In this document: piece after piece, positions 1-15,946 of the stretch | Numbering within the stretch: the stretch's first letter is position 1 | How the letters are laid out: every line of letters begins with the position of its first letter | Assembly (NCBI GenBank): GCA_002405515.1 | Contig: DHLZ01000204.1 | Location: 1 to 15,946 of the forward strand | Length of the DNA stretch: 15,946 bases | Source of the DNA: Planctomycetaceae bacterium UBA4655 | GTDB taxonomy: Bacteria > Planctomycetota > Planctomycetia > Pirellulales > UBA1268 | Reading direction: 5' to 3' | The notes under the pieces: generated by a model | What the model was told of the DNA's origin: nothing | Database searches by the model: none | Seen by the model: the letters and a program-made list of their open reading frames with translations, nothing else | Made by a program: the position numbers and the translations under genes

Positions 1-110
1 CCTCGGGCTTCCGTATTCGGCACCTGTTCGCCTGCAGGGCAACTCGCGCCTCGGGCTTCCGTATTGGGCACCTGTTCGCCTGCAGGGAAACTCGCGCCTC
101 GGGCTTCCGT
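1..110. repeat. 48-bp tandem direct repeat, about 2.3 copies (units 1-48 and 49-96, partial unit 97-110), containing the 8-bp palindrome CCTGCAGG
   Basis: Read directly. Unit 1 is cctcgggcttccgtattcggcacctgttcgcctgcagggcaactcgcg. Unit 2 differs at 2 of 48 positions. The third copy is truncated after cctcgggcttccgt. The array lies downstream of the 3' end of the minus-strand aroE-like gene. Confidence 0.9.
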
Positions 111-1144: not shown

Positions 1145-1708
1145 TCAGACCGTCAGGTGCGTCACCGCCACGAACCTCGGATCGGAACGGATCGGGTCGA
1201 AATCCGGTTCGATCTGGGTCAGGTCGCGAAACCGCTTGTCGATCGAGATCGCCTTCGTGAGGTGCTCGATCGCCGCCTGCACGTCACCGCCGAGCGAGAG
1301 GTAGCACGACAGATTGTAGTGGAGGATCGGCTCATCGGGCGAGGCGACCAGGCCCTGCTCGAGCACGTCGATCGCCTTCGGCAGCCGGCCGAGCCGCTTG
1401 AAACACCAGCCCAGGCCGAGCCACGCCTCGAGCCGCTTGGGATCGTTTTCCACGACGAGTTCGAACGGGCCGATGGCATCCGCCCAGTGGCCCATCGCCC
1501 GGAGGGCCTCCGCCTCGAGCAGTTTGGCGTCGGGCATCGACCGCGTCGGCTCGGGCAGTTCGTCGATCGTCTCGATCGCCCTGACGAGCAGCACCCGCGC
1601 GGTCTCGGGGGTGGGCCGGTCGCCATCGACCAATAGTTCCGCCAGCTCGACGTATCCAGAGGCCTGTCGCAGGATTGCCTGTCGGCGATTCCGGGTCATG
1701 GCGGTCAT
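1145..1708 (-). CDS. TPR-repeat protein (small, about 187 aa)
   Basis: TPR-like helical repeats, for example WLGLGWCFKRLGRLPKAIDVLEQGL and HYNLSCYLSLGGDVQAAIEHLTKAISIDKRF. An ATG at 1708 is preceded by AGGAG about 10 nt upstream on the minus strand. The ORF-track start at 1747 is a TTG, a less likely alternative. The gene is co-oriented with the aroE-like gene across a 64-bp gap and is probably in the same operon. Confidence 0.6.
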   Translation of the reverse strand: MTAMTRNRRQAILRQASGYVELAELLVDGDRPTPETARVLLVRAIETIDELPEPTRSMPDAKLLEAEALRAMGHWADAIGPFELVVENDPKRLEAWLGLGWCFKRLGRLPKAIDVLEQGLVASPDEPILHYNLSCYLSLGGDVQAAIEHLTKAISIDKRFRDLTQIEPDFDPIRSDPRFVAVTHLTV

Positions 1709-1747
1709 GGCAGTTCCGCTCCTGCTGAAAGCATTCGTCAGTTCCAA

Positions 1748-2006
1748 CCGTTCGACACGAGCGGCTCAGCCCGTGCGGCAGGATCTGCCGGAGTCTTCCT
1801 TGTTTCCCAGCACCTACATCATACCCAGGGTCCGGCGATTGCCGATTCTCCGGACCCCCGTCATACGGATTTTTCTACGGGATTCACGGTCGTTTGGGTC
1901 GCGCGGCGGGCGCCCCGGATTTTTTCCACGAAATGTCGGGCCGGATCGCCACTCTTCTCTTGGGCGGCCGGTTCGGCCGCGGCCGAACGATTCCGGGAGC
2001 CTGCCA
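1748..2006. promoter_or_regulatory. Divergent intergenic/promoter region between the TPR operon (-) and the membrane-protein gene (+), containing hairpins and palindromes
   Basis: GGGTCCGG(1828-1835)...CCGGACCC(1850-1857) forms a perfect 8-bp stem around a 14-nt loop that has an internal cgattgccgatt direct repeat. A near-palindrome ggttcggccgcggccgaacg (about 1967-1988) lies just 5' of the GGGAG RBS at 1994-1998. No promoter consensus could be assigned with confidence. Confidence 0.4.
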
Positions 2007-4268
2007 ATGTTGCGACTGACACTGCGGACGCTGCTCGCCTGGCTCGACGGCGTTCTTTCGGCGGATGAGGCCGATGCCTTCGCCGCGAAGCTCTCTGCCA
2101 GCGGATCGGCCCGGGTGCTCGTCGATCGTATCCGGGCGGTCGTCGCCCATCCCGGGCTCGACTCGCCCAAGGTGGTCGGCAAGGGCCTCGGCGCGGACGC
2201 CAATACCGTCGCCGAATACCTCACCAACTCGCTGCCGGCCGAGGCGGTCGCGGCGTTCGAAATGGTCTGCATCGAGTCCGACGTCCACCTCGCGGAGGTG
2301 GCGTCGTGCCACAGGACGCTCGTGGAGGCCCGCAACTCCCCGCGGGTTTTCGAGCCGCCGGAACCCCATGAGCTTGAACGACTGCTCGCTGCGACGGGCG
2401 GCCTTGCCAGCGGCGCGATCGGCTCGGAACGGTCAAAAGCGAAGCCGGCGGCGGCTTCGCCCGCGGCACCGTCTTCCAGGGCGGCTTCGCCAGCGGCATC
2501 GTTGCCAAAAACGCCGTCACCCGCGGCGGCGTCAACCACGATGAAGGGCTCCAAGACGTCGCCGGTGGCCTGGGCGTCGTTGATTGCGGCGGTGCTCCTG
2601 CTGGGAGCGCTCGCGGGAACGCTTGCCTGGAGGCTCATGCCGAATGAAACCGGCGGAGCGGTGCCAAAAAACAAGGACGCCGTCGCCCTTCGAGAATCGC
2701 CGGCTCCCGCGCCGGTGCCGCCGGCCCCGGCAGACCCGGCCGTGGAAGCGATCCCTGTAGTTTCGCCGGAGCCGGAGCCATCGCTTCCAGCGAAGGAAAA
2801 CGCGGGCCCGAAGCAGGATCTGAAACGGGACGACGCACTCGTCTCGCCGCCGCCGCGCGAAACTGATGCCTCCGTCGCGGCAGTCGGGGCGGAGCCCGCA
2901 CCGGAGCCCGCACCGGACGCTCCGCAGCCGTCGGCCGGCCGCGTGCCCGGGGGCGATGCGCTTGCGATCGGAGCGACCATCCGGCCGCCCGCCACGATTC
3001 CGAAGCAGCCCGCGCCGAACGATCCCAAACCGGCCGATCCTGCACGGAAAGAATCGGGTCCGGCAACACTGCCGGCGAGGAACGACGGGTCGGCGTTTGC
3101 GATCGTCGGCGTCGCCCCGCTTTTCCTGCAACGCATCGGAGATGCCGGCGGTCCGGCCGACTGGAAGGTCGTCGCACCACAGTCGCCGCTTTCCGCATCG
3201 ACCGACCTGCTCGTGCCGGAGGGCTTTTTTCCAACGTGGGCGGTCGGGAAGGCGACGATCCGCGTGATCGGTCCGGCCCGCGTGGTGGTCCGGCCGCGGA
3301 AGGATGCCGCCGCGGAGATCGAGCTCGTCTTTGGACGGGCGATTGTTGGCGGAATCGAGGCCGGGCGACCGATCGCGTTCGTGGCCGGCGATCTTTCGGG
3401 GCGGCTCGACGCCGGCGATCCGATCGGGCTGGAGGTGCGGTTCGATCGACCGTTCGGCAGTGATCCGGAGGCCGTGCCGTCGGCGGCCGTCGGCTCGATT
3501 GCGTTTCCCGAGGGGGGGAGGCTCACGTTCGAGCCCGGGGCCGCCGTCGCTGTTGAGGATGGGCTCATCCGCCCCGACGGCTCGGTCGCGACCGGTGTCG
3601 TGGTGACGGGCCGCGGGGAGGCATCCCGAGGCCTTCCGGATTGGCTGGCGTCGCCGTCCGCCCCACGGCTTCTCGATCGCCTCGCCGCCGAAGCGGTTGC
3701 CCGGAGCCTCGCGACGGCTCCGACGCCTGAAGCCCTCGAGCGGCTGCTCGGGGACAACCGTCTCGAGAATCGCTCCGCCGCCGCCGCGACGCTCGCGGTC
3801 ATGGGCCGGTACGAGCCGCTCGCGGACCTGCTCGCGGAGGAGCAGCAGGGCCTGCGGCTGCCGGCGCGGGCCTGGGAGGCCCTGGAGCAATCGACGGTTC
3901 CACTCGCCCTCGCCCGAGGGCCGACGTCGGCGGGCAGTCTGCTCGCGGCCTTCGAATCGGTCGTCCCGCCGAACGACCGGGATCTCGTGCGGCGGCTGGT
4001 CGTCGGCCTGTCGGGCCAGTCGCTCGCCGAAGGGGGCGACGCGGTCCTGGTCGCCGCCCTCGAACACCCCGTGCTCCTCGTCCGCCGCCTGGCAGCGTCA
4101 CGGCTGCTCGGGGCGGTTCGCCCGGCCGCGGCCGACCGTCTGCGGTACCGGCCGGACGGTCCTCCGGCAGCCCGCGCCGAAGCCGTGAAATGGTGGCGGT
4201 CGCAGCTCGAGAAGGGGCGGATTCGCGGGGGAGCGGAGGGAGGTCTGTCGAACGCCGAAGGGGAGTGA
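2007..4268 (+). CDS. Hypothetical single-pass membrane protein (754 aa) with an anti-sigma-factor-like architecture
   Basis: ATG at 2007 with GGGAG 8 nt upstream. The 1398-2006 part of the long ORF-track entry overlaps the TPR gene antisense and is treated as non-coding. The protein has an N-terminal soluble domain of about 130 aa. A hydrophobic segment follows (VAWASLIAAVLLLGALAGTLAWRL). After it comes a long Pro/Ala-rich linker (PAPAPVPPAPADP...EPAPEPAPDAP...). A beta-rich region resembling a FecR-type domain follows, by eye. C-terminal HEAT-like repeats include LLGDNRLENRSAAAATLAVMG and VAALEHPVLLVRRLAASRLLG. GC3 bias runs throughout. Confidence 0.65.
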   Translation: MLRLTLRTLLAWLDGVLSADEADAFAAKLSASGSARVLVDRIRAVVAHPGLDSPKVVGKGLGADANTVAEYLTNSLPAEAVAAFEMVCIESDVHLAEVASCHRTLVEARNSPRVFEPPEPHELERLLAATGGLASGAIGSERSKAKPAAASPAAPSSRAASPAASLPKTPSPAAASTTMKGSKTSPVAWASLIAAVLLLGALAGTLAWRLMPNETGGAVPKNKDAVALRESPAPAPVPPAPADPAVEAIPVVSPEPEPSLPAKENAGPKQDLKRDDALVSPPPRETDASVAAVGAEPAPEPAPDAPQPSAGRVPGGDALAIGATIRPPATIPKQPAPNDPKPADPARKESGPATLPARNDGSAFAIVGVAPLFLQRIGDAGGPADWKVVAPQSPLSASTDLLVPEGFFPTWAVGKATIRVIGPARVVVRPRKDAAAEIELVFGRAIVGGIEAGRPIAFVAGDLSGRLDAGDPIGLEVRFDRPFGSDPEAVPSAAVGSIAFPEGGRLTFEPGAAVAVEDGLIRPDGSVATGVVVTGRGEASRGLPDWLASPSAPRLLDRLAAEAVARSLATAPTPEALERLLGDNRLENRSAAAATLAVMGRYEPLADLLAEEQQGLRLPARAWEALEQSTVPLALARGPTSAGSLLAAFESVVPPNDRDLVRRLVVGLSGQSLAEGGDAVLVAALEHPVLLVRRLAASRLLGAVRPAAADRLRYRPDGPPAARAEAVKWWRSQLEKGRIRGGAEGGLSNAEGE

Positions 4269-7518: not shown

Positions 7519-9123
7519 ATGAAACAGGAAATGCTCATCAACGTGTCGCAGCCGGAGGAATGCCGGATCGCGATCATGGAAGACGGTGTGCTCGAGGAGC
7601 TCTACGTGGAGCGGACGAGCGCCGACAACTACGTCGGCAACATCTACAAGGGCCGGATCGTCAACATCGAGCCCTCGATCCAGGCGGCGTTCGTCGATTT
7701 CGGCGTCGGCCGCAACGGCTTTCTCCACATCAGCGACGTGGAGCCGCAGTACTACCGTCAGGGCGGCCTCGATCCCGACAAGGCGTTCGACCTGCCGGAG
7801 CCGGCGGGCAAGGGAGGAGACGACTCGCAGGGGGCCACGAAGACGCCGCCCCGCCGCCGGGCCCGCCTTGGCGACCGGCCGCGGGTGAAGCCGCCGATCC
7901 AGGACGTCCTCCGCCGGGGCGACGAGGTGCTCGTGCAGGTGATCAAGGAGGGCTTCGGCACGAAGGGGCCGACGCTTTCCACGTACATCTCGATCCCGGG
8001 CCGCTACCTCGTGCTCATGCCGCCGCTCGGGCGGGTCGGCATCTCGAAGAAGATCGACGACGAGCAGGATCGCCGCCTCCTTCGCGACATCATGCTGGAG
8101 CTGAAGCCGCCGAAGGGAGTGGGGTTCGTCGTGCGGACGGCCGGCACCACCCGGACGAAGCAGGAGATGGCCCGCGACATGGCCTATCTGCTGCGGCTCT
8201 GGAAGAGCATCGTGCGGCGGATGAGGAAATACTCCGCCCCGATCGACATCTACCAGGAAAGCGACATGATCATCCGCACGATCCGTGACATGTTCACGGA
8301 GAACGTGGGGAGGATCCTCATCGACGAGCCGGCCGCCTACGAGCGTGCCCGCGAGTTCCTCGAACTCGTCATGCCGCGGTACGTGAGCCGGCTGCAGCTC
8401 TATGAGGGCAAGGAGCCGCTCTTCCACCGCTACGGCCTGGAGGAGGAGATCGGCCGGATGTATCAGCGGAAGGTTCCGCTCAAGGGGGGCGGCTCGATCG
8501 TGATCGACCAGACGGAAGCCCTCGTCGCGATCGACGTCAATTCGGGCAGCTTCCGGACGGAGCAGTCGGCCGAGGAGAACGCCTATCAGATGAACCTCAT
8601 CGCCGCGAAGGAGATCGCCCGACAGCTGCGGCTGCGGGACTTGGGCGGCGTGATCGTCAACGACTTCATCGACATGCGGAAGGAGAAGTACCGCCGCGGG
8701 GTCGAGAAGGCGCTCCACGACGCGATGAAGCGGGACCGCGCCCGGACGAAGGTGCTCCGCACGAGCCCCTTCGGCCTGATCGAGATGACCCGCCAGCGGA
8801 TCAGGCCTTCGCTCCGCAAGAGCATCTTCCGCGACTGCCCCACCTGCAACGGCACGGGCACGGTGAAGACGGCGGAGAGCATGGCGATCGAGGTGATGCG
8901 GACGCTCCAGCTTTCGAGCGCCCGCGACGACATCACGAAGCTCGACATCTCGGTGCACGACGACGTCGCCACCTGGATCAACAACAAGAAGCGTCGGGAG
9001 ATGGCCCACTTCGAGGACACGACCCACATCCAGCTTCATGTCGTCGGGAAGGACGGCGTGTCGCCGGAGCATCTCGTCTTCGAGGCAAGGGACTCCGCCG
9101 GTCGGCAGGTGCGGTTTCCGTAG
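7519..9123 (+). CDS. rng: Ribonuclease G/E family endoribonuclease (RNase G-sized, 534 aa)
   Basis: MLINVSQPEECRIAIMEDGVLEELYVER...NIYKGRIVNIEPSIQAAFVDFGVGRNGFLHISD is the S1/RNase E-G catalytic N-terminus. The DNase-I-like region is present. The Zn-link CPTCNGTGTV is present. GGAGAA RBS lies before the ATG at 7519. Confidence 0.9.
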   Translation: MKQEMLINVSQPEECRIAIMEDGVLEELYVERTSADNYVGNIYKGRIVNIEPSIQAAFVDFGVGRNGFLHISDVEPQYYRQGGLDPDKAFDLPEPAGKGGDDSQGATKTPPRRRARLGDRPRVKPPIQDVLRRGDEVLVQVIKEGFGTKGPTLSTYISIPGRYLVLMPPLGRVGISKKIDDEQDRRLLRDIMLELKPPKGVGFVVRTAGTTRTKQEMARDMAYLLRLWKSIVRRMRKYSAPIDIYQESDMIIRTIRDMFTENVGRILIDEPAAYERAREFLELVMPRYVSRLQLYEGKEPLFHRYGLEEEIGRMYQRKVPLKGGGSIVIDQTEALVAIDVNSGSFRTEQSAEENAYQMNLIAAKEIARQLRLRDLGGVIVNDFIDMRKEKYRRGVEKALHDAMKRDRARTKVLRTSPFGLIEMTRQRIRPSLRKSIFRDCPTCNGTGTVKTAESMAIEVMRTLQLSSARDDITKLDISVHDDVATWINNKKRREMAHFEDTTHIQLHVVGKDGVSPEHLVFEARDSAGRQVRFP

Positions 9124-9179
9124 GACCGGCGGCCGGACGGCCCTACGCCCAAAACTCCCGGGAATTTCAGGGCTGCGCT

Positions 9180-9198
9180 CGACCTGCAGGGCAGGTCG
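9180..9198 (+). terminator. Hairpin CGACCTGC-agg-GCAGGTCG downstream of rng, containing CCTGCAGG and related to the window-end repeat family; possible terminator
   Basis: Perfect 8-bp stem with a 3-nt loop, 57 nt after the rng stop. It is followed by gggtatcctttcc, which is only a weak U-tract. A TTGACG -35-like hexamer lies at about 9220, ahead of rplU. Confidence 0.35.
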
Positions 9199-9257
9199 GG
9201 GTATCCTTTCCTGACTGTATTGACGATTTCCGCCCCCGATCTTTTTGGACTCCAGTC

Positions 9258-9653
9258 ATGGCCAAGGCATCTTCCGAACCCACCACCACCACCGCCGCCA
9301 GCACGAGGGGCTCCGCCGCCAGCATGAAGGGCGCGGGCCACGAGTACGCCGTCATCGTCGATGGCGGCCGGCAGTACACCGTGCAGGAGGGGCAGGAGCT
9401 CGAGATCGACTTCCGGCATCTTCCGGCCGGCAGCGAGGTCGTGTTCGACGAGGTGCTCGCGGTGAGCCGCGCGGGCAAGCTCACGCTGGGAGCCCCGAAG
9501 GTGAAGGGGGCAACGGTGAAGGCGAAGGTGGTCGGAACCGAGCAGGGCGAAAAGATCTACGTGCAGAAGTTCGCCCGTCGGAAGAACTACCGCCGCCGCA
9601 CCGGCCACCGCTCGCTCCACACCCGCGTGAAGATCGCGGGTATTTCCGGCTGA
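9258..9653 (+). CDS. rplU: 50S ribosomal protein L21 with an N-terminal extension of about 27 aa
   Basis: YAVIVDGGRQYTVQEGQELEIDF...VVFDEVLAV...GEKIYVQKFARRKNYRRRTGHRSLHTRVKIAGISG is collinear with E. coli L21, MYAVFQSGGKQHRVSEGQ...[28 protein letters not shown]. The extension MAKASSEPTTTTAASTRGSAASMKGAGHE has GC3-biased codons. An alternative internal ATG lies at 9324. Confidence 0.9.
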   Translation: MAKASSEPTTTTAASTRGSAASMKGAGHEYAVIVDGGRQYTVQEGQELEIDFRHLPAGSEVVFDEVLAVSRAGKLTLGAPKVKGATVKAKVVGTEQGEKIYVQKFARRKNYRRRTGHRSLHTRVKIAGISG

Positions 9654-9818
9654 TCAAGCGATCGGCGGGCTCATGGGTGCGGGCCGCGGGTATCTCCGGC
9701 TGATCGAGCGATCGGCGGGCTCATGGGTGCGGGCCGCGGGTATTTCCGGCTGATCAAGCGATCGGCGGGCTCATGGGTGCGGGCCGCGGGTATCTCCGGC
9801 TGATCGAGCGATCGGCGG
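9636..9818 (+). repeat. 50-bp tandem repeat, about 3.65 copies (units 9636-9685, 9686-9735, 9736-9785, partial 9786-9818), beginning within the last codons and stop of rplU
   Basis: Unit gcgggtat(t/c)tccggctgatc(a/g)agcgatcggcgggctcatgggtgcgggcc. Units alternate between two variants (tt..a / tc..g), giving a 100-bp super-unit in about 1.8 copies. The first unit encodes AGISG-stop of L21. Each unit has an imperfect inverted repeat ccggctgatc...gatcggcgg. The array sits between convergent rplU and the flotillin gene. Confidence 0.95.
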
Positions 9819-9819
9819 A

Positions 9820-11883
9820 TCAAGCGGTTGGCGGGGCAGGCGGACTGGTGATGGCCTGTGGTGACACCTCGGCCCTCTGCTGGCGGACGAGCTGGGCGAG
9901 CAGCACCTGCACGAGCCCGCCGCCCTCGACGCCGTCGCCCGCCCCGCCGACGATGATGTCGGGCGTGATCTTCAGCCCGGCCGTCGATATCGCCTTCATG
10001 ACCTCGACGGTGGTGACGCCCTGGGCGGTGAGCGCGTCCACCTGGTCGCGGTAGGCCTTGGCCTGCGCCTCTCCCTTCGACTGCACGACGCTCGCCTCGG
10101 CATCGCCGATCTGCTTCGTCTTCGAGGCCTCGGCCTCGGCGATCAGTTGCACCTTCGCGGCGTCGCCCCTCGCTCGCTCCTCCACCTGCCGGGCCTCGTG
10201 CTGCGCCACCTTGATGCCCGCCTCGGCCGAGATGATCTTCACCTGAGCGTCGGCCTCGGCCCTCGTCTTCTCGAACTCGATCCGCCGCTGCTCCGCGTCC
10301 TTCTTCGCGTCGTACATCGACTTTTCCTGCTCGGCGAGGTTCTTCTGCTGGGTGGTCTTCATGAGGGCCTCGGGCAGGTGGATGTTGGTGATCATCACCG
10401 ACACCACCTCCACCCGATACTTCGCGAGATCCTGCCGGACCGCCTCCTCGGCCGCCTTCTGCTCCTCGGCGCGATTCTGCTGGTAGGCGATGGCCGGCGA
10501 TCGCGAGACCTGGGCCCGGAAGATGCCGTCGATCTGGGGATGGATGACGTTCGTCTCGAGTTCCTCCACGGAGCCGATCTTCTGCACGACGTACGGCGCG
10601 TTCTCCGGCAGGATCCGGTATTGGCAGCGGACTTCCACCTTCATCTCGAAGCCGTCGTGCGACACGACCTGGAACGGGTCGAATCCCGTGATCTCCCGCG
10701 ACTTGGCCTTCTCGGCGCTCCAGTCGACCGACCGGGTCGTCGTGGGGATGATGATCACCGAGTAGGCGAGGGGATTGATGTTGTAGGCGCCCGGGCCGAG
10801 CACCTCCCGTTGGATGCCGCGGAAGCCCTTCGGCACGACGTGCCTCGTCCGCGAACCGTCGGGATGGGGGCCGTCGGTCTCCGGCTCGAACTCCGACGGA
10901 TCCTTTCCGATGTTGGAGATGAGCACGGCCACCTCGCCCTGGCGGACGAGCGCCTGCTTCCTCTTCGAAACGGCGAACATGTACGGATTGATGTAGTAGG
11001 TGCCCGGCGTCAGGATGTTTTCCTGCGGACCCCTTTTTCCACCCTTGTCGAGGAACAGCTGTCCGTCCTGGAAGCTGTTGACGTCCTCGGGCGTGTGCAC
11101 CACGACGTCGCTGCGGGCCATCGACAGGCCGTCGCGGGCGTCAACGATGCCGATCTCGTTCTCGCCGATGCGGATGGCGTCGCTGATCTCGACCTTGAAG
11201 ATCTCGGTGTTGATGTTGTAGGTGCCCGGCCTGAGGAAATCGATCTGCGGCCCCTTCTGCCCGCCGTTCTTCAGGAAGGCCTCCGCCTTCTGGAAATTGT
11301 CGTGGTCGGGGACGCTTCGGCCGAGCAGCTGGCCTGGCGCGAGCGGGGCGCCGTCGGCCGCCGTGATCACGCCGATCTGCCCCTCCGGCACGACCGTCTT
11401 CACGATCTTCGTCACCTTGAAAAGCCCCGGGTGGATCTTGAACGTGCCGTTGGTCAGGAACCGAAGCTGCTTGCCGCGGATGCCGCCGTGCGCGAGAAAC
11501 TCCACCGGGAGCTGGAAGTTGTCGTGCTGCTGGCCTGCGGGATCGTCGGCGAAGATGCGGCCGGCGGGAAGGGCGGCGCCGTCGGTCGCCTCCACGATGC
11601 CGAGCTCGTTGGCGCCGATCGTGATGAACCGCGGCTTCGCGACGACCCGCGTGATCGGCCAGAGGATGAAGTGGAGTCCCGGCGCGAGATACTCCGCCTT
11701 GAATCCCACCTCGCCCTGGAGCGCGAAGACCCGTCCGGGCGAGAGCTCCTTGCCGATGAACCTCCGCTCGAGAACGGCGATCCGATCCGAGCCGACGTTG
11801 ACGAGGAAGCGGGAGAGCAGGACGAGTCCCGCGACGACGCCGAAAAGTGAGGCGACGAGAACGACGATCTGCTGTTCGGTCAT
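9820..11883 (-). CDS. Flotillin-like SPFH/band-7 membrane protein (687 aa) with four extra tandem ~70-aa repeats
   Basis: ATG at 11883 with AGGAAAG 4 nt upstream. The N-terminal TM segment is IVVLVASLFGVVAGLVLL. The C-terminal half is a canonical SPFH core plus a flotillin EA-rich coiled coil (AEQEKSMYDAKKDAEQRRIEFEKTRAEADAQVKIISAEAGIKVAQHEARQ...LIAEAEASKTKQIGDAEA...). Between them sit four repeats, each showing G(I/V)(V/I)....DG..........D.NxFQ...FL..GG.+G.Q...L.PGTY.IN...F.V. The part of the ORF-track entry upstream of 11883 is an Arg-rich extension overlapping the ubiD 3' end and is not called. Confidence 0.85.
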   Translation of the reverse strand: MTEQQIVVLVASLFGVVAGLVLLSRFLVNVGSDRIAVLERRFIGKELSPGRVFALQGEVGFKAEYLAPGLHFILWPITRVVAKPRFITIGANELGIVEATDGAALPAGRIFADDPAGQQHDNFQLPVEFLAHGGIRGKQLRFLTNGTFKIHPGLFKVTKIVKTVVPEGQIGVITAADGAPLAPGQLLGRSVPDHDNFQKAEAFLKNGGQKGPQIDFLRPGTYNINTEIFKVEISDAIRIGENEIGIVDARDGLSMARSDVVVHTPEDVNSFQDGQLFLDKGGKRGPQENILTPGTYYINPYMFAVSKRKQALVRQGEVAVLISNIGKDPSEFEPETDGPHPDGSRTRHVVPKGFRGIQREVLGPGAYNINPLAYSVIIIPTTTRSVDWSAEKAKSREITGFDPFQVVSHDGFEMKVEVRCQYRILPENAPYVVQKIGSVEELETNVIHPQIDGIFRAQVSRSPAIAYQQNRAEEQKAAEEAVRQDLAKYRVEVVSVMITNIHLPEALMKTTQQKNLAEQEKSMYDAKKDAEQRRIEFEKTRAEADAQVKIISAEAGIKVAQHEARQVEERARGDAAKVQLIAEAEASKTKQIGDAEASVVQSKGEAQAKAYRDQVDALTAQGVTTVEVMKAISTAGLKITPDIIVGGAGDGVEGGGLVQVLLAQLVRQQRAEVSPQAITSPPAPPTA

Positions 11884-11980
11884 GACTTTCCTTGCTCGGA
11901 GTGGCTGCCGTGCGGCCACGGCACGGACGTCGGAGGATACTACCTCCGCGGGGTGCCCGTTGCACGGCAGGCATCGGCCT

Positions 11981-13879
11981 TCAGCCGAGGAGCCCGGCGA
12001 GCGGGCCCCCGCGGACGCAGAGGGCATCGACCTTCGCCGTGACCGCCGGGTCTTCCTCGACCGGCGGAGCGTGGTGGGGCTTGAGCCGGGCGTCGATGAC
12101 GAGCGGGCCCTCGCAGCCCCAGTGCTTCTGACGGACCCTCGCCGCGACACCGTGGACGTCGGCCGCGGGGTTCGACCGCGTGAACGTCACCCAGAGAAAG
12201 TTCTCGAGGCTCGCGGCCGAAAAGCCGGAGTCGTCCACGACCACGATGAGCGGCCATGGACGCAGCGGGTTGTCCGCGTGGATCGCATCGCAGAGCCGTT
12301 GGATCCCGGCCGACCAGGGGGAGGCGGCCGCGAGGCCGGCGAGCGACGTGGCGGCAGGGGCCGCGTCGTCCGAGGCGAGCGTCGGCGCGGGATCGATCCT
12401 CGGGCCCTCGATCGCGACGACGCCCGGCAGGCAGACCCTCGGGTTGCGGAAGCCGTCGGGGAGGGCGATGCCGGCGGGCAGTTCCCGCGAGAGGCTGCGG
12501 ATCGCCGGCCCACGGGCGGCCACCACGAGCTTCGAGCCGGCGTTGAGCCCGCTGCCGGAGTAGTCGAGCGTGTCGATCGTGGTCTCGGTGTGGAAGTGGC
12601 AGTCGCGCCGCCAGTCGGCCCGCGACAGCACGTGCGCGAGGAAGGGCCGGATGTCGTGGGCATCGAGGCCCGGCGCATCCCCCCCCGACACGATGAAGAG
12701 ATACTTCGCGAGCGACAGCTGCCCTTGGCCGAGGATCGCGGAGGCCTGCGTGAGCAGCTCGGCCGGGCGGTTCGACCGCTGCCAGGGCAGGTAGCGCTCG
12801 CTCCCGACGGCAAGCAGAAGCGGATGCACTCCCGACGCATCGACGGCATGAACGCTCCGCACGCCAGGCAGCACCGTCGGGATCACCGGTCCGGTCAGCT
12901 CGTGCACGAGCCAGCCGAAGAGCGTGTCTTCCTGCGGCGGGCGGCCGACCACCGTCACCGGCCAGATCGCCCCCTCGCGGTGCCAGACCCGCTCGACCTG
13001 CATCACCGGAAAATCGTGCCGTTTGGCATAGTAGCCGAGGTGGTCGCCGAACGGCCCCTCCGGCTTCGTCGTTCCCGGCTGCACCGTCCCCTCGATCACG
13101 AAATCGGCGTCGGCATAGATCGCGGGTCGTCCTCGCCTCGCGATCATCGGGATGCGGTGGCCCGCAAGCGCCCCGGCGAAGAGCAGCTCGGAGAGCCCCT
13201 CGGGCAGCGGCATGACGGCGGCGACGGCCATCGCCGGCGAGCCGCCGACGAACACGTTCACCTTCAGTGGCTCGCCGCGGGCGAGCGCCGCGGCATGATG
13301 GACGCCGATGCCGCGGTGGAGCTGGTAGTGGAGGCCGATCTCGCGGTCGGGCAGGTAGTCGTTGCCCGCCAGCTGCACCCGGTACATCCCGAGGTTCGAG
13401 TGTTTCGTGCCCGGCCGGTCGGGGTCTTCGGTGTAGACCGCCGGGAGCGTGACGAACGGACCGCCGTCGCCGGGCCAGCCCGTCACCTTGGGCAGCTGAG
13501 AAAGGGGGATCGAGTGGGCGACCGCCGGGCCCGATTTCACGCGACGCGGCAGCATCGAGATCGCGTCGATCGGGCTTCGCCAGTACCGCCACGGCTTCTT
13601 CAATGCTTCAGCCGGGTCGATCTTGAGCTCCACGAGCCGCTTCACCCGATCGAGCGTGCGGTGGAAGATCCGCTCGATCCGCTTTTGCGTGCCGTAGAGG
13701 TTCACGAGCACGGGGAAGGCCGTGCCAGCCGGTCGCGAGAAGAGCACCGCCGGCCCGCCGACCCGGAACAGCCGCCGCTGGATCTCCGCGATTTCGAGGT
13801 GCGGATCGACCGGATGGTCGACGACCACGAGTTCCCCCTCGCGGGCGAGCCGATCGACGCAGGATCGAAGCGATCGCAT
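11981..13879 (-). CDS. ubiD: UbiD-family (de)carboxylase; 3-octaprenyl-4-hydroxybenzoate carboxy-lyase / menaquinone MqnL-like
   Basis: [44 protein letters not shown] is collinear with the E. coli UbiD N-terminus, [49 protein letters not shown]. Full length is about 632 aa. The ATG at 13879 is the first Met compatible with the family N-terminus. The 13880-13984 extension in the ORF track lies inside the palindrome. Confidence 0.9.
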   Translation of the reverse strand: [632 protein letters not shown]

Positions 13880-13965
13880 AAAAAGGTGCCAGCCACCAAA
13901 TCTGGGTAAAATACCTTCGGCTTTATAGACATCTTGCCCAGATTTGGTGGCTGGCACCTTTTTTT
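13880..13965. repeat. Perfect 27-bp inverted repeat (13880-13906 / 13937-13963; AAAAAGGTGCCAGCCACCAAATCTGGG) around a 30-nt AT-rich spacer, with A5/T7 tails
   Basis: Read directly. Right arm CCCAGATTTGGTGGCTGGCACCTTTTT is the exact reverse complement of the left arm. The spacer taaaataccttcggctttatagacatcttg contains TATAGA/TATAAA-like hexamers in both orientations. The element fills the whole divergent intergenic space, 0 nt from the ubiD start codon and 13 nt from the osmC GTG. Confidence 0.9.
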
Positions 13966-13977
13966 GAAAGGACGCAG

Positions 13978-14388
13978 GTGGCACGAATCACGACGACGTA
14001 CGAGGGGAAGCTCCGCTGTCGGGCCCAGCACGGGCCTGCGGGCGAGACGGTGCTCACTGACACCCCGGCCGACGGCCAGGGCCGCAGCGAGGCGTTTTCG
14101 CCGACCGACCTCGTGGGAGTGGCCCTCGGGGCGTGCATGATGACGATCATCGGCATCGTCGCCGAGCGGCACGGGCTCGCGCTGGCCGGCATGAAGGCCG
14201 ACACCGTCAAGGAGATGAGCAAGGAGCCGCCGCGGCGGATCACTGTGCTCCGCACGACGCTCACGATCCCGCTCCCGCCGGATCATCCGAAGCGACACCT
14301 CATCGAGCAGGCGGCGCTCACCTGCCCCGTCCACAAGAGCCTCGCCGCCGGCATCGACGCCGCCGTCGACTTCGTCTGGACGGGCTGA
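13978..14388 (+). CDS. OsmC/Ohr-family protein (organic hydroperoxide resistance / OsmC-like)
   Basis: 136 aa. ...EAFSPTDLVGVALGACMMTIIGIVAERHG... and the ...LTCPVHKSL... Cys pair are typical of the OsmC/Ohr fold. GTG start with AAAGGA 6 nt upstream. Confidence 0.8.
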   Translation: MARITTTYEGKLRCRAQHGPAGETVLTDTPADGQGRSEAFSPTDLVGVALGACMMTIIGIVAERHGLALAGMKADTVKEMSKEPPRRITVLRTTLTIPLPPDHPKRHLIEQAALTCPVHKSLAAGIDAAVDFVWTG

Positions 14389-14408
14389 AGATCCACGGGA
14401 CCGATTCC

Positions 14409-15728
14409 ATGGCCGACCTCTTCGCCGCGTCGCGTGCCGCCAACCTCGCGCGGGCCGCGCCGCTCGCCGCGAGAATGAGGCCGCGGCGGCTCGCCGACTA
14501 CGTCGGCCAGGGGAAGGTCGTGGGGGAGGGGATGCTGCTGCGGCGGCTCATCGAGGCCGACCGGCTCGGGTCGGTGATCCTCTACGGTCCGCCGGGCGTC
14601 GGCAAGACGACGCTTGCGGAGATCGTCGCCACGGAAACGCGTCGCCGGTTCGTCGAGCTGTCGGCCACGTCGTCGGGCGTGAAGGAACTCCGCGACGTGC
14701 TCGACGCGGCCCGGCGGCGGCTCGAGGACGATGGGCAGCGGACCTGCCTCTTCATCGACGAGATCCACCGCTTCAACAAGTCGCAGCAGGACGTGCTCCT
14801 GCCCGACGTCGAGAGCGGGGTGATCGCGCTGGTGGGTGCGACGACCCACAATCCCTTCTTCGCGCTCACCTCGGCGCTCGTCAGCCGCAGCCGCATCTTC
14901 GAACTCGAGCCGCTCTCGGCGGACGACGTCGCCGAGATCCTCAGGCGTGCCCTGGCCGACCGGGAGCACGGCTTCGGCGCGGAACCGATCGAGATGGCCC
15001 CCGAGGCCCTGGCATTCCTCGTGGAAACCTCCGACGGCGACGCCCGGAGGGCGCTCGGCGGGCTCGAGGTGGGCGTGCTTTCGACGGCCGAGCGGCCGCT
15101 GCGGTTCACGCTGGCGCTCGCCCGGGAGAGCGTGCAGCGGAAGGCTGTCGCCTACGACGCCGGCGACACGCACTACGACTGCGCGAGCGCCCTCATCAAG
15201 AGCATCCGTGGCAGCGACGCCGACGCCGGCCTCTACTGGCTCGCGCGGATGCTCGAGGGGGGAGAGGACGTGCGGTTCCTCGCCCGCAGGCTCGTCATCC
15301 TCGCGAGCGAGGACGTCGGCAACGCCGACCCGCGGGCGCTGCTCCTGGCGGTGGCGGCGATGCAGGCGGTCGAGTTCGTCGGGCTGCCGGAATGCCAGCT
15401 CGCGCTCTCGCAGGCGGTGACGTATCTCGCGCTTGCGGCCAAGAGCAACGCCTGCACGACGGCGATCGCCGCCGCCCGATCCGACGTCCGCGAACAGCGG
15501 GTTATCCCCGTTCCCAGGCACCTGCAAGACAAGCACTACGCAGGCGCCAAGCGGCTCGGCCACGGCCAGGGCTACGAGTACTCCCACGACGCCCCCGACG
15601 GGATCGCCGCGCAGGACTACCTCGGCGTCGAAAAGCGGTATTACGAGCCCACCGACCGCGGCCACGAGCGGGAGCTTGCCGAGCGGCTCGCCGAGATCCG
15701 CCGGCGTCTTGGATCGCGGGAGGCGTGA
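14409..15728 (+). CDS. rarA: Replication-associated recombination protein A (RarA/MgsA AAA+ ATPase)
   Basis: RPRRLADYVGQGKVVGEGMLLRRLIEADRLGSVILYGPPGVGKTTLAEIVA... carries Walker A. ...CLFIDEIHRFNKSQQDVLLP... carries Walker B and sensor. The C-terminal MgsA domain is present. The 14133-14408 part of the ORF-track entry overlaps osmC out of frame and is not called. Confidence 0.9.
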   Translation: MADLFAASRAANLARAAPLAARMRPRRLADYVGQGKVVGEGMLLRRLIEADRLGSVILYGPPGVGKTTLAEIVATETRRRFVELSATSSGVKELRDVLDAARRRLEDDGQRTCLFIDEIHRFNKSQQDVLLPDVESGVIALVGATTHNPFFALTSALVSRSRIFELEPLSADDVAEILRRALADREHGFGAEPIEMAPEALAFLVETSDGDARRALGGLEVGVLSTAERPLRFTLALARESVQRKAVAYDAGDTHYDCASALIKSIRGSDADAGLYWLARMLEGGEDVRFLARRLVILASEDVGNADPRALLLAVAAMQAVEFVGLPECQLALSQAVTYLALAAKSNACTTAIAAARSDVREQRVIPVPRHLQDKHYAGAKRLGHGQGYEYSHDAPDGIAAQDYLGVEKRYYEPTDRGHERELAERLAEIRRRLGSREA

Positions 15729-15754
15729 GCCCCGGGCTACGGCGCCCGCACGAC

Positions 15755-15826
15755 ATACGGAAGCCCGAGGCGCGAGTTTCCCTGCAGGCGTTTGCGCAGA
15801 ACGCCCGGAAGCCCGAGGCGCGAGCC
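15755..15826. repeat. Inverted (reverse-complement) copies of the window-start repeat family: 36-nt match at 15755-15790 and 19-nt match at 15806-15824, downstream of rarA
   Basis: The reverse complement of 15755-15790 is cgcctgcagggaaactcgcgcctcgggcttccgtat, identical to positions 77-112 of the start array. A second block cggaagcccgaggcgcgag recurs 15 nt later with a different spacer. The plus strand here also shares gcgcagaacg with 136-144. Confidence 0.85.
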
Positions 15827-15946
15827 GAGAGGGGCGTTGACGAGGCCCCGCGAGTGGATGCCCGGTCACGAGCCCGCCTGCACGACACCGCATTGCCGCC
15901 CGGGGGGCAGACGCATCGTCGCTACGGCGAGGATACGCCTGATGCA

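Follow-up and report, generated by a model that had tools for sequence, protein, structure and literature searches.

REP/REPIN-type repeats at both ends of a planctomycete contig and their probable partnership with a class 3 Y1 transposase

Short intergenic repeats lie at both ends of contig DHLZ01000204.1 of Planctomycetaceae bacterium UBA4655 (assembly GCA_002405515.1), a stretch of 15,946 nt with 68% G+C that was analyzed at its full length and is referred to here as the window. The repeats are best explained, with a probability of about 0.8, as members of a short, non-coding and non-autonomous family of the Planctomycetota, of the type known as repetitive extragenic palindromes (REPs) and REPINs, whose partner would be a class 3 HUH-Y1 transposase (IS200-like and akin to the REP-associated tyrosine transposases, RAYTs) encoded elsewhere in the genome. 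A REPIN, a term that reportedly goes back to Bertels and Rainey in 2011, consists of two inverted REPs forming one hairpin.

Repeat units at the two contig ends

The window begins and ends beside two genes with Pfam support, and all of its repeat copies are extragenic, lying past the stop codons of such genes. On the left, the aroE-like gene occupies 199-1080 on the minus strand with its stop codon at 199-201, and a tandem array begins 88 nt past that stop; on the right, the mgsA/rarA stop codon lies at 15726-15728 and the first repeat unit starts 29 nt beyond it, at 15758. Tandem Repeats Finder describes the left array (1-110) as a 48-bp period in 2.3 copies with 96% matches, just as the initial annotation had reported. 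A repeat search of the window connects the two ends through inverted matches of 34 nt (77-110 with 15757-15790, 100% identity) and 36 nt (29-64 with 15755-15790, 97%). The adjoining 15-nt segments are unlike between the ends (TATTGGGCACCTGTT against GGCGTTCTGCGCAAA, same-strand reading). The annotated inverted block with a different 15-nt spacer, the mosaic of conserved blocks and diverged 15-nt segments, and the position of the copies at gene 3' ends are all borne out. The 19-nt block occurs once more in direct orientation at 15806-15824, 48 nt from the preceding copy. A REP profile run against the window (nhmmer --max) returned only 15806-15839, 15758-15776, 43-61, 91-109 and 1-13.

Two kinds of unit can be distinguished (Table 1). 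The full REP, or type A unit, is about 30 nt long and reads CGGA-AGCCC-GA-GGC-GCGA-GCC-GAGAG-GGGC, forming a weak two-tier hairpin behind a 5' CnGA foot; the window has one. The half-REP, or type B unit, has 48 nt and joins the 5'-terminal 19 nt of the REP to the linker TTTCCCTGCAGGCG and 15 diverged nt. Its REP portion begins exactly at the CGGA foot and ends one base past the tetraloop, thereby keeping the foot and the 5' half of the hairpin and missing the 3' half. Wherever a type B unit is seen whole, it lies directly outside a type A arm in the same orientation. Among the comparison loci, which carry L numbers, the orders are B-B-A in L020, A-B-B and A-B in L017, and B-A in L014, and the right end of the window is again B-A; decayed type B copies are found in L024 and L039.

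Table 1. Repeat features of the window and the observations that define them.
Feature	Positions	Strand	Basis
Truncated REP 5' half (last 13 of the 19-nt core)	1..13	-	nhmmer 13-1 to profile positions 2-14; cut by contig end
Half-REP (type B) unit no. 2: CGGAAGCCCGAGGCGCGAG + TTGCCCTGCAGGCG + AACAGGTGCCGAATA (minus strand)	14..61	-	Tandem Repeats Finder period 48; core match 43-60
Half-REP (type B) unit no. 1: CGGAAGCCCGAGGCGCGAG + TTTCCCTGCAGGCG + AACAGGTGCCCAATA (minus strand)	62..109	-	Tandem Repeats Finder, repeat search, core match, nhmmer
Half-REP (type B) 48-nt unit: CGGAAGCCCGAGGCGCGAG + TTTCCCTGCAGGCG + TTTGCGCAGAACGCC; directly 5' of full REP	15758..15805	+	Repeat search, nhmmer
Complete type A REP: foot CGGA, A, outer stem GCCC/GGGC, GA, inner stem GGC/GCC, GCGA tetraloop	15806..15835	+	nhmmer E = 3.7e-10; DNA fold; fits two-tier model
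Long REPIN-type element interior joined to the REP; cut by contig end; partner arm, if any, outside the window	15836..15946	+	

The conserved core of the family is CGGAAGCCCGAGGCGCGAG(CCGAGAGGGG). The octamer CCTGCAGG, initially taken for that core, is instead part of the type B linker motif CGCCTGCAGGGAAAC, is confined to the half-REP units of one sublineage and varies even within the linker, which reads CGCCGGTAGGGAAAC in L017 with CCCTACCGG in place of the octamer. Its four annotated occurrences in the window were found again (0.27 expected; none of 200 shuffles reached four), but three of the four fall within copies of one repeat unit, leaving only two independent occurrences. A palindromic ancestor centered on the octamer was considered and found unconvincing, given agreement at just 7 of 15 flanking positions. 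A conserved secondary structure of the half-REP unit was likewise rejected: each subfamily pairs differently, and none of the pairings is supported.

The left-end 48-nt unit, 15-nt segment included, is found again in another genome, where its surroundings are non-syntenic (unit 14..61 against the array at L020 1173-1287, 92-96% identity), and the whole unit is therefore itself a dispersed module. The truncated left-end piece may open either a third half-REP unit or an arm of a full REP or REPIN. At the right end, the cut element interior is 87-91% identical to L017 5119-4979 and 88% identical to L008 4639-4762, both non-syntenic loci. Within the window no REP has an inverted partner that would make it a REPIN, the units at 1-109 being direct repeats and the interior that follows the REP at 15806 being cut. 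A scan of metagenomes for the half-REP junction AAGCCCGAGGCGCRAGTTTCCC gave 0 matches, and half-REP units therefore seem to be confined to a narrow lineage or to be degenerate elsewhere. Tandem reiteration from the foot onward takes a different form at L017 3717-3790, where four head-to-tail 18-nt copies of the foot region (CTCTCACGGAAGCCCnnn) directly precede a full REP.

The bracketing of the window by oppositely oriented copies had been read as a possible sign of recombination-prone boundaries. The window is, however, the entire contig, and both of its ends fall inside repeats: position 1 lies within a unit, and the right-end element runs through the last base, 15946. The ends are thus set by the assembly, and the bracketing reflects where assembly stopped rather than biology and carries no information on recombination. 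Because a half-REP seen whole always points to its adjacent full REP, units on the inner side of such a REP point outward, and a full REP or REPIN just past each contig end would account for the inverted arrangement. This configuration is seen directly only at the right end; the left end probably abuts a REP/REPIN cluster.

Dispersal of the family and its small hairpin

A scan of one representative genome per species for the 19-mer CTCGCGCCTCGGGCTTCCG returned at least 25 loci. About 16 among the matches listed are in metagenome-assembled genomes (MAGs) of Planctomycetota, with several contigs per MAG, and the other listed matches are chance occurrences inside genes of unrelated phyla. In each planctomycete match the 19-mer forms the outer portion of a longer arm, CGGAAGCCCGAGGCGCGAGCCGAGAGGGG, which faces an inverted copy 30-140 nt off to give a REPIN-like hairpin; a 24-mer of the arm is present in 11 lake-metagenome contigs of the same build. 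Inverted arms of 26-29 nt occur in L001, L006, L014, L017, L020, L026 and L030-L040, complete REPINs of the family are found in L014, L017, L020 and L039, and the REPIN at L020 1268-1425 folds with -64.5 kcal/mol (z = -4.3). The flanks of the elements show no visible target-site duplications. The presence of copies in many genomes and species, in inverted doublets and beside RAYT-type genes (see below), supports the dispersed, extragenic REP/BIME-like family that was first proposed from this window (BIME, bacterial interspersed mosaic element), as opposed to a set of purely local copies. Rfam contributes no family at gathering or relaxed thresholds, only spurious matches of miRNA precursors to the long hairpins.

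Across the loci retrieved with the 19-mer and 24-mer scans, additional REP clusters have a density of about 0.65 per 10 kb, which suggests hundreds of copies per genome by extrapolation from loci ascertained through the repeat. In the gene-called loci L029, L041 and L043 the REPs are intergenic, and one apparent overlap, in L026, involves a probably over-extended gene start. A GC3-based test of intergenic position is noisy on this material, as stop-to-stop frames cross the GC-rich repeats, and searches with a 13-mer allowing 2 mismatches yield chance matches. A second dispersed repeat, GACCGTGAGGGGCTGCCCGTGCCC(GGGAGCCGGCG), adjoins REPINs at L020 1440-1463 and L024 5185-5208. A variant of it lies at L051 ~7625-7660, the site after mgsA in a relative without REPs, and it is not found in the window with up to 3 mismatches allowed.

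The DNA fold of a single REP is .....((((..(((....))).....)))), with -5 kcal/mol and z = +0.2. REP variants were compared by means of an explicit structural descriptor, in which a foot is followed by an outer stem (3-5 bp), a spacing of 1-3 nt, an inner stem (2-3 bp), a 4-nt loop and the mirror image; a MAFFT alignment had mis-registered the two REP variants. Of 37 unique REPs drawn from many genomes, 29 conform to the descriptor, nearly all of these with a G-N-N-A loop; the three 48-nt half-REP units of the window do not conform to it. Both stems vary in a compensatory manner, the inner one as GGC/GCC, AGC/GCT, GC/GC, CC/GG and CGC/GCG and the outer one as CCC/GGG, CCT/AGG, CCG/CGG and CCGC/GCGG. 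At one inner pair the unique copies comprise 34 G..C, 11 A..T and 4 C..G combinations against 1 A..C and 0 G..T, counts in which the copies are related by descent, so that a Fisher P value overstates their independence.

The foot CGGA precedes every copy in the window (15758 and 15806; 109 and 61 on the minus strand), separated from the stem by an extra A. Feet of other lineages read CTGA, TCGA, AGGA and ACTA, and the foot is accordingly variable. In short REPINs (L030, L034-L036, L038, L040, L006 and L037) the two arms differ systematically, GAGGCGCGAGCC against GAAGCGTAAGCT, with the differences compensated within the small hairpin of each arm. Stem covariation within each arm thus explains the systematic difference: the two arms are two REP subtypes, each internally compensated. 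They resemble the Y and Z REPs of E. coli BIMEs.

A Y1 transposase gene among the repeats

The window itself contains no Y1 transposase gene. In L017, from a MAG with repeats at 87-96% identity to those of the window, an open reading frame (ORF) of 172 codons lies between two REPINs. Its product matches the Pfam family Y1_Tnp (PF01797) with 24.0 bits (cut-off 23), and its best NCBIfam model is REP_Tyr_transpos, at 31.4 bits and below that model's 80-bit cut-off. There are 128 homologues, including proteins from Blastopirellula, Gemmataceae, Stratiformator, Calycomorphotria and Phycisphaerales, many of them labeled RayT by JGI. Five further homologue loci, at 43-53% identity, carry the same REP family on both sides of the gene, bringing the REP-flanked Y1 genes to six of the six loci examined (L017, L026, L029, L041, L042 and L043). 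The arrangement varies among the five: REPINs stand on both sides in a JGI metagenome contig (L026), single inverted REPs flank the gene in Blastopirellula marina (L029), 12 alternating copies with periods of 108-110 nt are found in a Gemmataceae MAG (L041), Stratiformator vulcanicus (L042) has the REP variant AGCCGCGACTGGTAAGGAGCGG, and in L043, which also has the family on both sides, an IS110-type transposase is near.

An alignment of these transposases shows the motifs NHVH, KSWATR and YVxExQ together with a conserved N-terminal block. Class 3 TnpA-Y1 proteins were defined as a rare class by Quentin et al. 2018 (BMC Genomics 19:475, PMC6006769), with the motifs NHVH, W[TA] and YV[VI][AENY]EQ, extended N-terminal conservation and hosts mainly among Planctomycetes, Acidobacteria and Proteobacteria; the agreement of the three motifs with Table 1 of that paper supports the class 3 assignment. 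A structure predicted from 42 homologues (pLDDT, the predicted local distance difference test score, of 91) matches HUH-Y1 transposases and nothing else convincingly. The predicted fold is closest to 4er8, the complex of TnpA-REP with a REP hairpin, and next closest to the TnpA proteins of IS608 and ISDra2, while a sequence profile compared with the same structures gives a weak match (E ~0.1).

The class and its repeats have been noticed on one occasion only, when a few genomes were inspected manually; the class was found to be accompanied by up to ~600 REP copies per genome and was proposed as an evolutionary intermediate between IS200/IS605 elements and domesticated RAYT/REP systems (PMC6006769). 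According to the literature consulted, the biochemistry of class 3 transposases has never been examined, and a search of a limited collection found no later work on class 3 or on planctomycete REPs. The REPs in its Table S1, CACGAGCCGGAAGCGTGAGCGACGGGT from Planctomyces limnophilus, CCGAGCCGCGACCGTAAGGGAGCGGA from Legionella and CAGAGCCGCGACCGTTAGGGAGCG from Solibacter, are all drawn as (((..((....))..))), and the fold of 15806-15835 has exactly this atypical form. Class 3 REPs and the present family have in common a CnGA foot (CGGA here), a G-N-N-A loop, a weak two-tier hairpin, an extragenic location, a probably high copy number, mainly planctomycete hosts and, in the loci examined, a position flanking the gene of a Y1 protein of ~160-180 residues with the motifs NHVH, W[TA] and Y----Q. 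The P. limnophilus REP aligns nearly base for base with the AGC/GCT subtype of the family. Differences lie in the consensus CGGAAGCCCGAGGCGCGAGCCGAGAGGGG, which is not in the published table, and in the extra A between foot and stem; REPIN doublets with long interiors, two compensatory subtypes in one REPIN and 48-nt half-REP tandems are not described there.

The class 2 REP/BIME/REPIN-RAYT systems of E. coli, Pseudomonas and Stenotrophomonas share with this family short extragenic palindromes, a 5' guide tetranucleotide, inverted doublets, mosaic clusters with conserved linkers, REPs that flank their own transposase gene and the 4er8 fold. In contrast to class 2, the foot here is CnGA rather than GT[AG]G (no copy has GTAG or GTGG at its foot), the hairpin has two tiers and much less strength, and the transposase belongs to a separate class (31 bits against the RAYT model's cut-off of 80). 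The REP core is conserved across families and even orders, whereas class 2 REPs are species-specific, and the tandems are direct half-REP repeats rather than the alternating Y and Z REPs of class 2 BIMEs. The ends of IS200/IS605 insertion sequences such as IS608 and ISDra2 are similar in their HUH-Y1 enzyme, in the guide tetranucleotide at the hairpin foot and in the lack of target duplication, and their subterminal imperfect hairpins, recognized on single-stranded DNA, invite comparison with the REPs described here. In those elements two distinct ends, left and right, belong to one element; here the hairpin units far outnumber the transposase gene, and the same REP stands on both of its sides.

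Origin of the repeats and competing explanations

The two repeat sites of the window are without REPs in close relatives. L045 is collinear from HPr to aroE at 82-86% nucleotide identity and has a convergent ferritin gene 38 nt past the aroE stop with no REP, and five Logan contigs with a 95%-identical AroE (L046-L050) show aroE followed by convergent ferritin, again with no REP. L051, at 90% nucleotide identity over 11980-15709, is free of REPs over all of its 11.6 kb, the site after mgsA included. This absence at the orthologous aroE and mgsA sites indicates that the clusters are lineage-specific insertions or rearrangement junctions and not conserved regulatory sites. That the Logan contigs break near aroE at a REP was considered and ruled out: they break at an unrelated 17-nt mini-tandem (GCCTGATTACACCGTCA, 2-3 copies after aroE in L046-L050, inside which four of the five contigs end), with ferritin directly next.

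The proposed partnership implies a mechanism for which the cleavage and rejoining of folded, single-stranded REPs by class 2 TnpA-REP in vitro (PMC8266576) forms the basis. The mobile unit is likely the REPIN-like hairpin of two inverted REPs 30-140 nt apart. By analogy with class 2 TnpA-REP and with IS608 and ISDra2, the transposase would bind the folded REP on single-stranded DNA and cut and rejoin at a site set by the foot, so that REPINs, mobilized in trans, would spread into intergenic DNA without target duplications. Half-REP arrays could then grow beside a full REP through slippage between the 19-nt direct repeats, through unequal exchange between them or, as a more conjectural alternative, through repeated cleavage and joining by the transposase at the foot.

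The latter route would make the 48-nt half-REP units natural footprints of class 3 transposase chemistry, a doubtful proposition prompted by the way in which the units start at the CGGA foot, break one base past the tetraloop and stack head-to-tail against a full REP. Repeated foot cleavage would in that case be followed by strand transfer or by abortive one-ended copying. If so, the arrays would mark class 3 cleavage and joining points and would represent a new growth mode for REP clusters, by direct half-site arrays instead of alternating BIMEs.

Several points weigh against the assignment to a transposase-mobilized REP/REPIN family. The lone REP hairpin is thermodynamically weak, the covariation behind it is counted over related copies, and the action of a class 3 enzyme on these REPs is argued by analogy. 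The half-REP units stand outside the hairpin model, and no consistent alternative structure was found for them. The closest evidence on copy number and on the transposase gene comes from a related MAG, CAZPEM01 (L017, L020), rather than from the genome of the window itself. Finally, the REP core is unusually conserved across planctomycete families, which could reflect a host function rather than purely selfish spread.

A function as transcription terminators or stabilizers of mRNA 3' ends, kept by selection, is unlikely to be the primary role of the repeats. Every copy in the window does lie just 3' of a gene, full REPINs fold strongly, and enterobacterial REPs are reported to stabilize mRNA and to terminate transcription (PMC6006769). 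However, no intrinsic terminator, in the form of a G+C-rich stem with a T-run, is found at 1-300 or 15600-15946, and shuffled sequences fold as well as the arrays do (z = -1.3 to +0.5), so that the terminator association initially suggested is not supported. The repeats are missing after the same genes in relatives of ~90% nucleotide identity, one of which has a downstream convergent gene with its own classical hairpin and A-run, and units occur in both orientations and also 5' of a transposase gene. The only terminator-like site detected is at 9178-9200, 55 nt past the stop codon of the RNase E/G gene (rng), with a 10-bp stem, a 3-nt loop, a T-rich tail and an RNA fold of z = -3.2. It had been annotated as a diverged copy of the repeat; with only CCTGCAGGGCA in common with the repeat unit and no REP-profile match near 9180, it is better described as an ordinary terminator-like stem.

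It is very unlikely that the repeats are miniature inverted-repeat transposable elements (MITEs) derived from a conventional DDE insertion sequence, with the 26-29-nt arms as terminal inverted repeats and the half-REPs as decayed ends. The Correia elements of Neisseria and ERIC are comparable in size (~85-160 nt, with elements of 85-160 nt here), long and here near-perfect inverted ends, dispersed intergenic location and strong hairpin potential, and an IS110-type transposase is close to one RAYT locus (L043). The present elements differ from such MITEs in lacking direct target duplications at their flanks and a DDE parent, no DDE transposase with these ends having been found in any locus examined, and in their link to Y1 genes, with repeats on both sides in all six such loci. 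Lone single arms flank the transposase gene in L029, and compensatory changes preserve the small hairpin within a single arm, a pattern unexpected for DDE terminal repeats.

Still less can be said for a local duplication or inversion footprint, or a recombination hotspot, specific to this 16-kb segment. The identical 34-nt blocks in opposite orientation and the loss of synteny with relatives at both repeat sites would fit such an event, yet the same units occur at non-syntenic loci of other genomes (L017, L020, L008, L024 and L039), the ends were set by the assembler, and the interior is collinear with L045 and L051 save for two gene-sized indels; the dispersed copies exclude a local inversion footprint. 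A degenerate or miniature array of clustered regularly interspaced short palindromic repeats (CRISPR), suggested by the alternation of a conserved 33-nt repeat with a variable 15-nt spacer at a fixed 48-nt period, is excluded by spacers that are near-identical within one array (TATTCGGCACCTGTT against TATTGGGCACCTGTT) and by the absence of cas genes or domains from the window, and is further opposed by a spacer length below the minimum of ~21 nt, by the recurrence of the entire unit in L020 and by a weak common motif that marks the variable blocks as diverged homologues rather than acquired sequences.

The two indels and some other features of the window were noted in passing. At 9635-9818 a 50-bp unit is repeated 3.7 times with 95% matches, each unit comprising the last 18 nt of rplU with its stop codon and 32 nt of downstream sequence; the unit is single-copy in L051 (3747-3816). 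As the adjacent SPFH/Band7 gene (9820-12150, minus strand) is missing from L051, this array sits at a gene-sized indel junction. The second indel is an extra gene for an 890-residue beta-propeller-like protein between rng and rplU of L051 (591-3263), without a counterpart in the window (9120-9160). The divergent intergenic region between the UbiD-like and OsmC genes, where two 5' ends rather than 3' ends meet, is filled at 13877-13966 by an A+T-rich near-perfect palindrome with 36-nt arms, an 18-nt spacer and flanking A and T runs. Its RNA fold reaches -60 kcal/mol (z = -11), it is 79% conserved in L051 (5719-5805), and it may act as an operator, form a cruciform or be some other small element. 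Between a TPR gene and the hpf/ptsN/HPr/ptsI cluster, an ORF of up to 956 codons (~1400-4268, plus strand) has no Pfam domain, and neither has its L045 homologue, called with 760 residues.

The kind of element found at the ends of this contig is already known, though barely studied, and holds nothing surprising for specialists in REP/RAYT systems; direct arrays of half-REPs and compensatory subtypes of the REP extend it only slightly. In practical terms, such repeats fragment the assemblies of planctomycete MAGs and may pass for regulatory motifs or CRISPR-like arrays. The window and its relatives add a well-populated planctomycete branch to the class 3 system, with covariation support for the small hairpin, two compensatory subtypes in one REPIN and direct half-REP arrays, and these additions provide concrete substrates for a first biochemical test of class 3.

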